Shown here one piece after another: positions 9,001 through 24,000 of a stretch of DNA of 64,000 nt. Made by a program: the position numbers. Source of the stretch: a virus (taxonomy: Duplodnaviria > Heunggongvirae > Uroviricota > Caudoviricetes); IMG/VR virus record IMGVR_UViG_2630968933_000007, positions 32,001-96,000 of that record; one strand, given 5' to 3'. Each line of letters begins with the position of its first letter. Position 1 is the stretch's first letter.

Positions 9001-12000
9001 TTCTCAGGGTAACCTGAATATTGGTGGCCTTTTTAGTGTTACGTCGCAGGGGCAACTGACAATTCGTTACTCTAATCAGAATGTTGGGCTGGTGATCCGC
9101 AATGATAAAATTGAAGTTTATGACCAGAACGGACGCCTGGCTGTTCGCATAGGCAGGTTAAGCTGATCCGGAGGCTGACATTGGCAGAATATGGTTTTGC
9201 AATATACAACAGAAACAATGTTAATGTTACGGGCGTGCTTACTCCCATATTTTTCCTGGACAGGTTTACGGCGGAGTCGGGATCAAAAACGTATACGAAT
9301 AAACCAGAAGGGAAAACATTGCAGGCAGTCTGTTCATTATTTCCGTGGAATAATGTATTTAAGGACCGGAAAGTACCGAAGATAACCATTAATGGCAATA
9401 CGGTGACGTGGTCGAATCTTGAGCAGGGGATGGGGTCATATATTTATACATTCTGGGGGTGAGTTGTATGTATGGTTTAAGCATTACGAAACCAGATGGC
9501 AGCTTGTGGATAAGCCCGGGGTTTACGCCTCAGTGTCTGATCAATAAGGGAACTATTCCGGCGACTGAGAAGGCTTTTTTTAAAACATCAATCCCGTCAG
9601 GAAAAAGTTGTTTTTTCTTTATCAGAACAGAGAAAAAGGCCGATGTCATGTACACACATGAACAGATTGATGGATATCATGCCTTAAGGCTTCATCAAAT
9701 TGTCAGGGGAACGAATCCTGGTGTTACGACTGTTTATGCTTTTGCGAATATGGTTACTCAACCTTCTGAGTATGGTATTGCCATGTATAACCCGTCGGGT
9801 GAGATGATTTACCATGGCGAAATGATGCTGCTTGACGCGAAGTTAATACCTGTTGATATCAAATTTGAAAAAGATCTCGGATATCCATGTGCAATTATGC
9901 CTGCACTGGTTGGGTATTATAACTGGCAGCGTACACCTTATGACCGACCGATTTACACCACATCAACGGGGGCTACAGGAAATAAAATATATTCCTGTGA
10001 GCATTATTCCGGTCGTGCAACATGGGATATTCGGAAGCCGTATATAGATAAAGTGCTGGTCATTAATTCATCAATATATGACTGATATGCCTGTCAGTAT
10101 GAATATTAAGTAATAAAACTAAATTCATCTTAGATAATACGGGGTTATTTTATTATAGGAAAAGTCTAAAAATGAAACATGCCAGAATTATTTTTGCGTG
10201 CACAACTTTTGTGATGAGTTTTGTAGCAGCCCCTGCCTGTGCAGCACAAGGTGACAGTACAGTTTCTTTCGGATACGCTCATCTTCAGCTCTCTGGACTG
10301 AACAATTTTGTTAAGGATTTAAGTCTTTATAATCTTGATACTTTTAACCGTTTTACAAACAGACACTACTTCAATTCAGGCGAATATGCAGATGCTTCTG
10401 TCCGGGGGCATGATGGCAAAGGCAAATCTCCTCAGGGGATGAGCATCAGGTATCGTTATGAGATAACGGATGAGATTGGTGTTATAACATCTTTTACATG
10501 GGCGCGTTCTATGACTAATGCGCAGGCATTTATTGATATTAACCCAGGAGATGAATCCAGAGAGGTTAAAAATCCGGCAGCTTCAGCGAGAACTGATATC
10601 AGGGCTAATTACTGGAGTCTACTATCCGGTCCTTCGTGGCGGTTTAACGAATACCTCAGTGTGTATGCAATGGCTGGTATGGGGGTTGAAAAAGTCACCA
10701 CTGACTTGAAAATTAACGACAATCTTAATCATGGTGCCGGTAGTTTTTCTGAAAGCAAGAGTACTAAAAAAACAGCACTTGCATGGGCTGCTGGTGCACA
10801 ATTTAACCTGAATGAAAGTGTTGCTATGGATGTCGCGTATGAAAGCTCCGGATCCGGTGACTGGCGCACGAGTGGGGTTATTGTAGGCATTGGCCTGAAA
10901 TTCTGAGTAATACCCGACAACATGTCATAACCCGCTGTGATGGCGGGTTTTTTGTTGCCCGTGCAGGGCAAAAATCGTAGATTATGCGCGGGTGCCTTTC
11001 GGCTGATGGCTGGAAGGTGAACCTGAAGGCCTGATGTGGAAAGGCCCCGAGTCAACTTTAACGTTAACCCGAGGCCCTGACACTTCTTTCCTTGAAAGTA
11101 GAAGGTTAGCGCCTCTCCACTCAGGAGGCAAGCGCTATGTCGCAAAAATCGCTTATCACCGTCACAATTTGCATGACGGTAATCTTCACCATCTGGATGT
11201 TACACGGTTCGCTGTGTGAGTTCCGGCTGAATTTGTGGGGAGCGGAGTTTGCGGCGTTCTTACAGTGTAAGCAGTAGGAAAACCGCGACGGGGACGAAAG
11301 TCCCCGTCAACTGGTTGCTGAGGTTCAGCCGATATGGCACCCGTTTCAGGTGAGAGAATGGACGACAAAATTCTCCGGTATATGCAGCGTGTTGTGAGAA
11401 ATTCCCGCAACCCTGAATTTATGAATGAAGTTAAAGACGCCTGCCTTAAAAAGCAGGCGTTTTGCTTTGAAGCGCCGGATGGTTTTCTGGTGCTGCGTTC
11501 TGTGCTCAGTGACGATGGTATCCCTTATGTTCTGGTGTTACTGGGCGTGTGTACGGGGAGTAAGAGTGTTGAGCGTTATCTGCCGGAGGTGAAGACATTA
11601 ACCCGCCTGGCTGGCGGACGCTGGGCCGAATTTCATACGGCAAGACGAGGATTTATCCGGCTGGGAAAACGTCTGGGCTTTGAGCGAATGCCGGATGATG
11701 AGGATGGCTTCATGGTGTTCAGGATAGCAGTCTGACTGCCACTGTATTCATCATCGAGCGTAAACCCACATTGCAATTCACATTCTGACCCTGCTCCGGC
11801 AGGGTTTTTTGTTATCTGAGGAGCCATTATGGGCGGAAGTAAAGGTGGTGGTGATACCAAAGTAAAACCAACAGCAGCGCAAATAGCACAGGAAGAGGTG
11901 GCCTGGAAAGGGTGGCAGGATTACAAAAATATTCTCCGTCCGGCAGAAGATAACTTCATGAAAAAGGTCGATGACCTTAACAGTGAGCAGCAGTACGAAA

Positions 12001-21000: not shown

Positions 21001-24000
21001 AACCCGTCGCGAAGTTGTTGAACGTCCGGTGCCTATGGCAATGATGGCGGATCGCTACTTCACCACCAAAAAGGACGGCAAAACTTACTACATTAAACTT
21101 CATGATCCGCGCCTGATGCGTGCGATGAAGAACATGGGGCCGGAAACCAGTAACGCCGTAATCCGTACGCTGGGGAAAGTTAACCGTTTCCTGGCAACGG
21201 TGAACACGTCGTATAACCCGGAATTTCTGGTCAGTAACTTCATCCGTGACGTGCAGACGGCGGTGATGAACCTGAAGGCGGAGCAGGGAAGGAGCGACGG
21301 TAAACTGAAAGGGCTGGATAACTTATCCGCCCTGGCTGTAGTCAAAGACAGCCGTTCTGCAATGTCAGCCGTGTACGCCAGTCTGCGTGGCAAAACCCTC
21401 ACGGGCAAAGGCGCACAGTGGCAGAAAGTGTGGAAAGAGTTTGTTGAGGACGGAGGTAAAACCGGCTGGTTTAACATGGGTGACCTTGAAGGCCAGAAGA
21501 AGGAAATGGATCGCCTTGTATCGCTGGCGAAGGGAGGATGGAAAGGCCAGAGTATCGGTGCATGGCATTCGTTCCTGAACCTGGTCGAGGATGCCAACGG
21601 CGCGGTTGAAAACGCTCTGCGTCTTTCTGCCTATAAACACGCCCGTGATGCCGGTTTGTCACGCCAGCAGGCGGCATCTCTTGCCAAAAACATGACGGTG
21701 AACTTTAACCGTCGTGGTGAGCAGGGAGCGCTGATGAACTCGCTGTATATGTTTGCCAACGCCAGCATTCAGGGGACCGCAAACCTGGTGAGAACGCTCG
21801 GACATCTTAATGGCGACGGGCCGTTACCGGAGCGCCTTCGCTGGAAGAATCTCAATGTACCGCAGAAAATCGCGCTTGCAGCTGTGGGAGCGGGTTATCT
21901 GCTTGGCTCGCTTAACCGCAGTGTTGCGGGGGAGGATGATGACGGGGTTAACTGGTACGACAAGGTGCCGTATCATGTGAAAGAGCGTAACCTCGTCATT
22001 ATGAAATCGATGTTCGGGGGCAGGGCCGGAGAGTACTGGAGTATTCCTCTGCCTTACGGGTACAACGTTTTCTTCCTGCTCGGGCATACCTCTGAAGGTG
22101 TGGCTGCTGGTGACCTGACGGCGTCCCGTGCTGCCGGTAATGTTGTCGGTGGTATCCTGGGGGCATTCAGCCCGATTGGCAGTGAGACGTCGGAAACGCT
22201 GTCCGGGGCATTGCTGAAAAATGCAGCACCGACAATTCTGCGTCCGTTTGCGAATCTTGCCATGAACGAAAACTTCATGGGGGCGCAGATTTACCAGGAG
22301 AACATGCCGTTTGGTACACCAAAACCTGACAGCCAGCTGGGAAGACGTTCAACGCCAGAAGCGTACAAGGCGTTTGCATCCTGGCTGAATGCGTTCTCAG
22401 GTGGCAGCCAGTATCGTCCCGGCGCGGTGGATATCACACCGGAATCGCTGAAATTCTGGATTGACTATATCTCCGGAGGGACAGGGCGCTTCATTTCCAA
22501 AACCACAGATGCGGCGGTGAAATCGCTGAACGGTATTGATATACCGGAGCAGCAGGTGCCCTTCCTGGGGAAAATTTCGGGTGAGGTGATGCCGTATGCA
22601 GACCAGCAGAAGATGTACGACCGGATGACAGAGGTTGCGCAGTATCACGCAGAGCTGAAGAGTCTGACCGGTGCAGAAAGAACGGCGTTCATTGACGAGA
22701 ACAACGGAAAATTGTTGATGAACGGGCTTATGCAGGATACCCGGAAGAGACTGAAGGATTTGCGCAAACAGCGCGATGCCATTTATGCCGACAGTTCTCT
22801 CAGTCTGGCGCAGCAGGCGGCGATGGTGAAATCGGTAGAGCGGGATATGAAGGTTGCCGTGGATCGCTTTAACCGCGAGTACAACAAAAAAGTGGGAGTG
22901 GATTAACAGAAATGGCCCCGTACGGAAGTGCGGGGCTGATTAAGAAATAAACACACATTAACCTGTAATAACCGGAGCTATTAACATATAGTCAGAAAGA
23001 GTATTTCATGTGAGACAGAGAGCCGATTTATGTTTAATGAAGAAAAAGTTGCGTAAATGGCAGCGTATTTGCTGAAAAAACATGGCGGATCTATGCGTTT
23101 CATTAAGCTGATGTATCTCTCTGACCGCAAAGCAATGGAGTTGTATGGTTTTCCCATTAGTGGTGATCATTATTTCTCTATGAACAAAGGACCCGTTTTA
23201 TCGCAGACATATTCTTTGGTTAAGGATGGAAGTGAAAACGAGTACAGTCCGTGGGAATCATGGATATCTGATGTAGCGGATCATAAGGTTGAAATGTGGC
23301 GTACATTTTCTTCTGTTGATGAGCTGGGGGAGTTATCGCCCGCAGAAATAGAGTCAATGGACATAATTTTTGGTCAATATGGAGGTTGGGATGCGTTCAG
23401 GCTTTGTGATGAAACTCACAGAATTTGCGGTGAGTGGCGCGATCCGCATGGTTCATCAATTCCAATCAGCCTTAAGGATATATTTATTGCTCTTGGAAAG
23501 TCGCCAGAAGCAGCAACAGTAATGGCGAATAGCATTTATGCGCAAAATAATCTTGATATATTATTAAGTGATCTGAGGTAGTCGGGATGATGTTCAGCCC
23601 TTATTTGTATTTACCGGGGAGGGAAGATGTTTAATTCCGATTCCCCGGCTCCACAGGCCTAACCTAACTTTATGTAACAGTCCATGCAGGGCTGAAATCT
23701 GCCTGCTGAAATAACTCCGTTAGCCCGCTAATCTGCTTTAACCTCAGAACTTCATCCTGGTCCATCCCCAGTTCTGTTCCGATACGTTCATCAGTCCAGC
23801 CAAGACGTGAAAGATCTCTGACAATATCAGACATTGAGGTTATCTGGTGTTTCCCCCTGGCTCTGTTATGTCGGATAGTCGCGGCAATACGTGAGGTTTG
23901 TCCCTTTCGGTCTGGATTAATACAGGTTACTGGTAGCCAGCCTTTCAGGCGTTTTCCAGTAACTGTTCTTCTACCTAGTAACTGCCTATGAAAACCATCC

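Follow-up and report, generated by a model that had tools for sequence, protein, structure and literature searches.

The window analysed here, a stretch of 64,000 nucleotides (nt) from IMG/VR virus record IMGVR_UViG_2630968933_000007 (positions 32,001 to 96,000), carries between positions 11829 and 22906 a block of five genes, g1 to g4 and a giant gene encoding a protein of 2,788 amino acids (aa). By sequence comparison the block is the late-region cassette of Sepvirinae podophages of the 933W/Sp5/phi24B type, and we consider it likely that the five genes form the internal-virion (ejection-protein) cassette of a Sepvirinae podovirus prophage, with zincin cargo delivered at entry. The locus is a near-identical copy of a cassette known from genetics (2016), computational classification (2013/2017) and virion location (2026), and the window adds no new biology beyond another copy of what has been described.

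An earlier note, made from the sequence alone, had proposed a tightly coupled operon of five open reading frames (ORFs). ORF calling returned all five, in one orientation and at exactly the coordinates that it gave:

11829-12485, plus strand: g1, 218 aa, ATG start
12482-12934, plus strand: g2, 150 aa, GTG start, overlapping g1 by 4 nt
12944-13195, plus strand: g3, 83 aa
13206-14471, plus strand: g4, 421 aa
14540-22906, plus strand: giant gene, 2,788 aa, intact ORF

The intergenic gaps across the block are -4, 9, 10 and 68 nt, and a GGAG-type ribosome-binding site precedes each of the five starts.

The giant protein, which the earlier note could not place, has close relatives. Over its whole length the 11-kb block is found at 90-98% nucleotide identity in 186 phage records, all of them Sepvirinae podophages of Escherichia/Shigella, either Shiga toxin (Stx)-converting or close to such phages, and it is present in 426 of the 5,426 complete E. 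coli genomes. Each of the five proteins matches a single PHROG family over its full length (phrog_611, phrog_596, phrog_594 and phrog_601 for g1 to g4, phrog_616 for the giant protein), all five labelled 'unknown function'. The giant protein shares 92-97% aa identity with Stx phage proteins and is the orthologue of Sp5 ORF80 (ECs1242) and phi24B gp47. Sp5 (VT2-Sakai) ORF76-80 and phi24B gp51-gp47 are the same five genes in the same order, with the same lengths and Pfam domains, at about 90-93% nucleotide identity. The window copy differs from these two in being nearest to the PhiR5_2/GER2 lineage (96-99%), in a prophage at ynfG, and we found no functional difference between its cassette and those of Sp5 and phi24B. 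In the closest complete genome, that of E. coli G1/2 (NZ_CP060083.1, 1-4563), the copy of the giant gene at this chromosomal position is recorded as a pseudogene with a frameshift.

Genetic evidence comes from Sp5, whose genes were deleted singly in K-12 MG1655 (Mondal et al., 2016; PMC5155283). We equate Sp5 ORF76-80 with g1 to g4 and the giant gene from their consecutive numbering; VT2-Sakai genes H0146-H0150 lie over this stretch. The ΔORF79 and ΔORF80 mutants (ORF80 being 2,793 aa) gave neither plaques nor lysogens and were complemented in trans, and their DNA packaging and heads were normal (PMC5155283). Infectivity was strongly reduced in the ΔORF76 mutant, which lacks the g1 orthologue, and ORF77 and ORF78 were not among the essential genes (PMC5155283). 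Since production and assay of the mutants used one K-12 host, the defect is not one of restriction.

In many O157 Stx2a-converting phages (for example LC616038, LC616050 and AP012534), an insertion of about 1.3 kb interrupts the homologue of g4. The insertion is annotated as IS629 in AP012534, and tblastn covers only aa 82-421 of g4 as one piece. Since g4 corresponds to the essential Sp5 ORF79, O157 prophages with a split g4 may make no infectious particles.

Evidence on virion location comes from phi24B. The earlier note had suggested that the small proteins are internal-virion components and that mass spectrometry of virions would be informative; for the phi24B orthologues this has been done, and homologues of all five proteins were detected in purified virions (Bubenchikov et al., 2026; bioRxiv 10.64898/2026.04.10.717836). 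The numbers of peptide-spectrum matches (PSMs) were as follows:

gp47 (giant protein): 10,962 PSMs, 93.6% peptide coverage, peak in the top gel slice
gp48 (g4): 1,634 PSMs, runs at full length
gp51 (g1): 523 PSMs
gp50 (g2): 129 PSMs
gp49 (g3): 13-16 PSMs, 3 peptides

The cryo-electron microscopy (cryo-EM) map of phi24B explicitly lacks gp47, for which the authors propose a role as an ejection protein, and gp48-gp51 are not mentioned among the proteins modelled in it (bioRxiv 10.64898/2026.04.10.717836). Some 36,000 of the particles in the phi24B preparation are emptied ones. Together the phi24B and Sp5 orthologue data support the internal-virion reading of the small proteins and contradict the view that the giant protein is absent from virions or dispensable. 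As gp47 peptides peak in the top slice of the protein-level profile, gp47 appears to be mostly full-length in stored virions. The same authors set gp49 aside as a contaminant from its annotation alone (bioRxiv 10.64898/2026.04.10.717836), a label that looks mistaken given our domain analysis and the conserved synteny of g3.

Among the small proteins, g1 has the glycine-rich termini that the earlier note described, and g3 fits its description of an 83-aa glycine-zipper membrane protein. The C-terminal match of g3 to Pfam Gly-zipper_YMGG (E = 1.6e-6) reaches 28.1 bits, slightly below the cut-off of 28.9, and a hydropathy peak at aa 57-75 marks a membrane-type segment. Apart from this glycine zipper we found no curated family for g1 to g4. 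The g3 family is mis-annotated as 'bacteriocin' in databases, a label that derives from the glycine zipper alone, and the single match to a tape-measure PHROG also falls on the g3 zipper (E = 0.0086).

Homologues of g1 to g4 occur in the same order immediately 5' of a gene for a 2,800-aa protein in Vibrio phage D171 (phmmer E = 2e-14, 2e-5, 8e-9 and 7e-12, respectively). The sole interruption there is an HNH endonuclease gene on the opposite strand (D171 6461-7252), between the g3 and g4 homologues. Beyond the 186 Stx-type records, about 104 records of Vibrio phages combine g1 and g4 with the giant gene, and a further match of g1 (E = 4e-8) is BcepMigl gp66, annotated as 'virion associated protein'. 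In Ralstonia, Burkholderia and Ruegeria phages phmmer found no homologues of g2, g3 or g4; the genes in equivalent positions there are at most candidate homologues.

The giant protein combines several unrelated domains in one chain of 2,788 aa:

14765-15859, plus strand: N-terminal conserved region, about aa 76-440; the D171 tblastn match starts at aa 76 and phrog_37568 covers aa 170-437
aa 406-433: glycine-zipper-like segment ending the N-terminal region; Gly-zipper match sub-threshold, E = 0.019
15857-17674, plus strand: low-complexity linker rich in P, E and Q, about aa 440-1045, from a composition scan; no Pfam match
17675-18124, plus strand: LPD5, aa 1046-1195, Pfam PF18799, E = 5e-45; beta-rich and helical in the AlphaFold2 (AF2) model
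18068-18844, plus strand: metallopeptidase domain 1 (MPTase-1), a CLCA_X-type zincin, aa 1177-1435, including Pfam LPD1 at aa 1356-1435 (E = 2e-23)
18947-19579, plus strand: MPTase-2 (aa 1470-1680), a zincin probably of the HEXXXH clade; the model has a zincin-like topology
19772-20047, plus strand: MuF_C, aa 1745-1836, Pfam PF18819, E = 5e-18
20147-22903, plus strand: conserved C-terminal module, aa 1870-2788, containing LPD38
21950-22567, plus strand: LPD38, aa 2471-2676, Pfam, E = 4e-47

LPD5, LPD1, MuF_C and LPD38 are Pfam domains defined for 'large polyvalent proteins', and on this domain content the giant protein is classified as a phage-type polyvalent protein. It agrees with the polyvalent proteins of Iyer et al. 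in being a giant multidomain chain encoded among virion genes, with LPDs, zincin-type MPTases of two published clades (strand-2 His with Asp at +3, and probably HEXXXH), MuF-C/PBECR and the phage-only LPD38. That study was purely computational and its main text does not include Stx phages or 933W (Iyer et al., 2017; PMC5512222), whereas for the Stx orthologues essentiality and packaging are experimental. The giant protein has no relative in the PDB by sequence and no match to a tape-measure or fibre family, which speaks against the refuting case named in the earlier note, that it is simply a tape-measure or tail-fibre protein. In all relatives the giant gene lies downstream of the capsid, tail-fibre and lom genes.

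The C-terminal module also occurs in podophages of Vibrio, Ruegeria, Ralstonia and Burkholderia. Its position within the protein is always C-terminal: in all 67 homologues that cover at least 80% of it the match stops within about 100 residues of the C-terminus, and in 66 of them within about 45. The N-terminal parts of these homologues vary (ART-PolyVal, methyltransferases, InPase, LPD3, LPD39). The AF2 model of the module has a predicted local distance difference test score (pLDDT) of 82.6 and a predicted template modelling score (pTM) of 0.78.

Two HExxH motifs had been read in the giant protein at nt 18374-18388 and 19175-19189. They are there, at aa 1279 and aa 1546, against 0.04 motifs expected from composition. 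No Pfam zincin family matches at either one, and tiling of the protein adds only a sub-threshold Peptidase_M76 match at motif 2. In the models, both MPTase domains show a zincin-like topology (the HExxH helix, a preceding three-stranded sheet and a Glu on a later helix) together with fold matches, so the case in which both motifs sit in non-zincin folds does not apply. The two domains resemble the protein-cleaving MtfA, lethal factor and PPEP.

Motif 1 belongs to the best conserved part of a unit composed of LPD5, the HExxH core and LPD1, which also occurs in stand-alone proteins of about 400-500 aa. Residues H1258, E1260, H1279, E1280, H1283 and D1286 are invariant in 69 of 69 homologues (at most 70% identical), and E1370 and E1377 nearly so; we regard H1258, H1279, E1280, H1283, D1286 and E1370/E1377 as candidate catalytic residues of MPTase-1. 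H1258 falls in model strand 218-221, and Iyer et al. described a phage-type MPTase variant with a His closing strand 2 and an Asp at the third position past HEXXH (PMC5512222). CLCA_X (NCBIfam NF041907) matches aa 1177-1432 with E = 1.3e-44 over profile positions 3-245 of 250, and its score of 152.5 bits is below the whole-protein cut-off of 260. By sequence, MPTase-1 is thus a clear domain-level CLCA_X homologue inside a larger protein and not a stand-alone member of the family. CLCA_X was defined as a zincin family and sister of the self-cleaving CLCA_N protease, its members being encoded mainly by phages and plasmids and often within proteins longer than 1,000 aa (Lenart et al., 2013; PMC3650047). 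The motif is written HExxHxxxD in that paper, whereas the giant protein has HEWFHSLD, with the Asp at +3. Our literature search found no biochemical test of a CLCA_X member.

For MPTase-2, a word-indexed search with the domain alone (aa 1470-1680) yielded close relatives only, and we therefore used an exhaustive representative search, which returned 388 representative relatives in carrier proteins with a median length of 2,321 aa. H1546 is conserved in 143, and E1547 and E1602 in all, of 145 sequences. E1602, a candidate third ligand, lies in an AEExxAxxAE helix about 52 residues after motif 2. The motif reads HExx[A/G]H in 138 of the 145 relatives, as in the HEXXXH clade of Iyer et al.; in the query and its four nearest relatives it is HEIIHH, which fits either HExxH (with H1550) or HExxxH (with H1551). 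A site like that of DPP III (M49), considered on the basis of HExxGH in six divergent sequences, was dropped once the 145 sequences had pointed to the HEXXXH polyvalent clade.

The MuF_C/PBECR domain is a predicted RNase, following the published interpretation of MuF-C (PMC5512222). The phi24B preprint took MuF-C for a peptidoglycan-degrading metallopeptidase, which our analysis does not support, as MuF-C is a predicted RNase and the true zincins lie elsewhere in the protein.

On the ejection-protein reading, the cassette would be transcribed as the distal end of a Q-dependent late operon. At adsorption the needle would be released, and the cassette proteins would leave the capsid before or with the DNA and help it to cross the envelope. 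The glycine-zipper segments may serve as membrane-active elements: g3, the zipper at aa 406-433 of the giant protein and the LPD38 module of about 920 aa are the best candidates for an envelope-spanning or encapsidation 'chassis'. The first two thirds of the giant chain would then be enzymatic cargo delivered at entry, made up of LPD5 with the CLCA_X-type zincin and LPD1, the HEXXXH zincin and the predicted MuF-C/PBECR RNase, with long disordered linkers between them.

As to what the zincins would do, most likely they cut their own polyprotein and so free the modules after delivery, which we propose by analogy with CLCA_N self-cleavage and with the MPTase hypothesis of Iyer et al. Alternatively, they may cut host proteins. 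A role as peptidoglycan hydrolases is unlikely.

Known ejection proteins offer functional parallels. As proposed for the cassette proteins, T7 gp14/gp15/gp16, P22 gp7/gp16/gp20 and N4 gp50 are capsid-internal and needed for infectivity and not for packaging; N4 gp50 is also giant, contains an MPTase and has a C-terminal region required for encapsidation. The earlier note had likened the giant protein to T7 gp16 and the N4 virion RNA polymerase, and this holds as functional analogy but not as homology, since we detected no sequence or fold similarity to the T7, P22 or N4 ejection proteins. Neither Pfam nor PDB sequences reveal an RNA polymerase module, the sole N4-type link being phrog_2206 (E = 0.0043, aa 190-556), and there is neither a match to a lysozyme or lytic transglycosylase family nor a PDB sequence or fold match to T7 gp16.

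Relatives by sequence are the 'DarB-like' giant proteins of Bcep22-like (Lessievirus) and GP4/Gervaise-like phages, which measure 4,500-4,660 aa and share the C-terminal module of about 800 aa at 27-29% identity. These phages also have a g1 homologue and a protein of about 500 aa encoded immediately before the giant gene, and their portal, capsid and head-closure proteins are homologous to those of 933W. Association with the virion was verified by mass spectrometry, as in the Bcep22-like JC1 for the giant protein and for its neighbour of about 510 aa, encoded just 5' of it. The N-terminal cargo of the Bcep22-like and GP4-like proteins is different and much longer, their cassettes add acetyltransferase and PAPS-reductase genes, and phmmer found no clear homologues of g2, g3 or g4 in them.

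Several points weigh against the ejection-protein reading. For the C-terminal module, no relative of solved structure was detected, and its top hydropathy windows reach about 1.2-1.4, short of a strong transmembrane segment, so that a role as a conduit would be analogy only. Any self-processing of gp47 would have to follow ejection, since its mostly full-length state in stored virions speaks against cleavage prior to packaging or in its course. The phi24B copy numbers per 12 portal subunits (giant protein about 11-35, with about 19 as a single value, g4 about 30, g1 about 22, g2 about 36-40, g3 low; bioRxiv 10.64898/2026.04.10.717836) are spectral-count estimates, for which the authors claim accuracy only within a factor of about 1-3. 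Finally, the Sp5 study itself took the phenotypes for tail-assembly defects, as the mutant particles were not labelled by an anti-tail-fibre antibody (data not shown in that study; PMC5155283).

This last interpretation, by which g4 and the giant protein would not be ejected but would serve to build or stabilise the tail, so that it forms or stays attached at the portal vertex, is the strongest rival, although we judge it unlikely. It accommodates the DNA-filled, normal-looking heads of the ΔORF79 and ΔORF80 mutants that the antibody did not bind, and the phi24B authors suggest that the internal contents of the tail may be a core constraining tail orientation. The antibody result was not documented, however, and gp47 is abundant in virions yet missing from the resolved tail and from negative-stain images; the tail is complete without it, with portal, two adaptors, nozzle, needle and fibres. 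The argument for energy-requiring assembly depends on an AAA+ ATPase domain (COG1483) reported for Sp5 ORF80, which we did not reproduce: a pattern scan confirmed the earlier observation that the giant protein has no Walker A motif ([AG]xxxxGK[ST]), and it has no Pfam or NCBIfam ATPase match. Nor does a tail role exclude ejection, since an internal core can stabilise the tail and still be ejected, as in T7.

We then weighed whether the giant protein could be a DarB-like anti-restriction accessory, injected only against restriction or other defence and otherwise dispensable. P1 DarB is also large, travels in the head and is delivered along with the DNA; aa 2349-2676 match phrog_10089 ('DarB-like antirestriction'), the Ralstonia and Burkholderia relatives are annotated accordingly, and polyvalent proteins as a class have been proposed as counter-defence effectors. 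P1 can do without DarB on hosts that do not restrict, but the Sp5 orthologue of the giant gene is essential even when growth and testing use one and the same K-12 strain, so that restriction plays no part. Moreover, the methyltransferase and helicase domains of P1 DarB are absent from the giant protein (Pfam and NCBIfam, whole protein and tiles), and the DarB label belongs to the shared C-terminal LPD38 module and not to a DarB domain. We consider this explanation highly improbable; the comparison with DarB in the earlier note stands in the generic, polyvalent sense and fails for the enzymatic domains. The cargo domains could have counter-defence roles beside the core role.

The sequences 5' of g1 bear on the least probable alternative. 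As the earlier note had described, lom is followed by a hok-like locus, which is real but divergent, and two terminator-like elements flank parts of the cassette:

10172-10906, plus strand: lom (Ail/Lom outer-membrane protein), Pfam Ail_Lom, E = 2.6e-33; a moron outside the cassette
10990-11277, plus strand: divergent hok/sok-like locus, with a sok-like RNA (10990-11148) and a Hok-like ORF (11137-11277)
11787-11813, plus strand: terminator-like hairpin (11787-11806) and T-run just 5' of g1, conserved in phage Ss-VASD
14503-14529, plus strand: terminator-like hairpin (stem-loop 14503-14522) and run of seven T between g4 and the giant gene

The sok-like RNA scores 35.6 bits with Rfam sok (E = 4e-6), under the gathering score of 59, and the Hok-like ORF encodes 46 aa with the signature SLCEFRL...AEFAAFL. 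A further ORF of 133 aa (11334-11735) follows the hok-like locus and precedes g1, from which the hairpin at 11787-11806 separates it; no Pfam family matches its product, which is conserved among hypothetical proteins (Ss-VASD gp68). This hairpin, which the earlier note did not mention, probably insulates the cassette from transcription of the lom/hok morons in the lysogen.

That the small genes are themselves lysogenic-conversion morons, whose products contaminate virion preparations, has a very small probability: they directly follow lom and the hok-like locus, g3 bears the database label 'bacteriocin', and the phi24B authors called gp49 a probable contamination and, in one sheet, gp48 'Transcription factor?', but they are tightly coupled in translation to the giant gene and separated from the morons by a terminator-like hairpin, the same four genes stand in the same order beside the giant gene in Vibrio phages that lack both lom and hok, infectivity depends on g4, and gp48, gp50 and gp51 are at least as abundant as the portal.

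The second hairpin is the terminator that the earlier note had placed at 14501-14528. It reads ACCCGG-TCATTGTG-CCGGGT, followed by the seven T, and is conserved in Ss-VASD. A comparable hairpin occurs in D171 (8775-8889) at the corresponding site, between the g4 homologue and the giant gene, at about 35% protein identity, which suggests from the sequences that the position of a hairpin before the giant gene is conserved across distant phages. The D171 hairpin is followed by an AT-rich stretch with TATAAT. Terminators in a Q-antiterminated lambdoid late operon are normally read through. The hairpin between g4 and the giant gene may attenuate transcription, stabilise the upstream mRNA or do nothing under Q antitermination.

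The window covers the right-hand part of the Sepvirinae prophage, whose nearest phage is PhiR5_2. Directly 3' of the giant gene (23057-25525) are a SocA/Panacea antitoxin-domain gene on the plus strand and two minus-strand genes, an IbrB-like ParB_N gene and an IbrA-like PAPS-reductase/DUF3440 gene; Ss-VASD has a Hok/Gef gene instead of the SocA/Panacea and IbrAB genes. In Bcep22-like and Gervaise phages, PAPS-reductase genes stand within the internal-protein cassette and adjoin the giant gene. In the remainder of the window (about 25700-64000), the prophage ends at a truncated ynfG, followed by ynfF-rspB and then a Qin-type prophage. Two Rfam sRNA-Xcc1 matches above the gathering score (26392-26477 and 26926-27014, minus strand) lie beside AntA/AntB antirepressor genes at the prophage end. 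The Qin-type prophage carries DicF (42451-42502), relBE and hokD/sok (sok at 47079-47250), along with cspB/F/I genes that account for two cspA-thermoregulator matches, at 54096-54488 and 56998-57383.

Taking the cassette and its relatives together, we tentatively offer a broader scheme, which is possible and, in our view, somewhat doubtful. Here g1 to g4 and the LPD38 module would be an ejection chassis conserved among Sepvirinae, Vibrio, Bcep22-like and GP4-like phages, and the N-terminal two thirds of the giant protein a swappable payload, which in Stx phages would consist of two self-releasing zincins and a PBECR RNase that, once cut free after injection, would act on host RNA or proteins within minutes of the start of infection. 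If so, each Stx-phage infection would start with an enzymatic attack on the recipient cell, and O157 Stx2a prophages with IS629 in the g4 homologue would be toxin producers unable to transmit.

Short-tailed Stx phages spread Shiga toxin genes among E. coli, and the cassette makes up about one sixth of their genome and contains two genes that are essential for infection. The phi24B study lists the organisation of gp47 in the capsid as an open question. How the DNA crosses the envelope, and what the protease and predicted RNase domains do, bear on the transmission of Stx phages and on polyvalent proteins generally.

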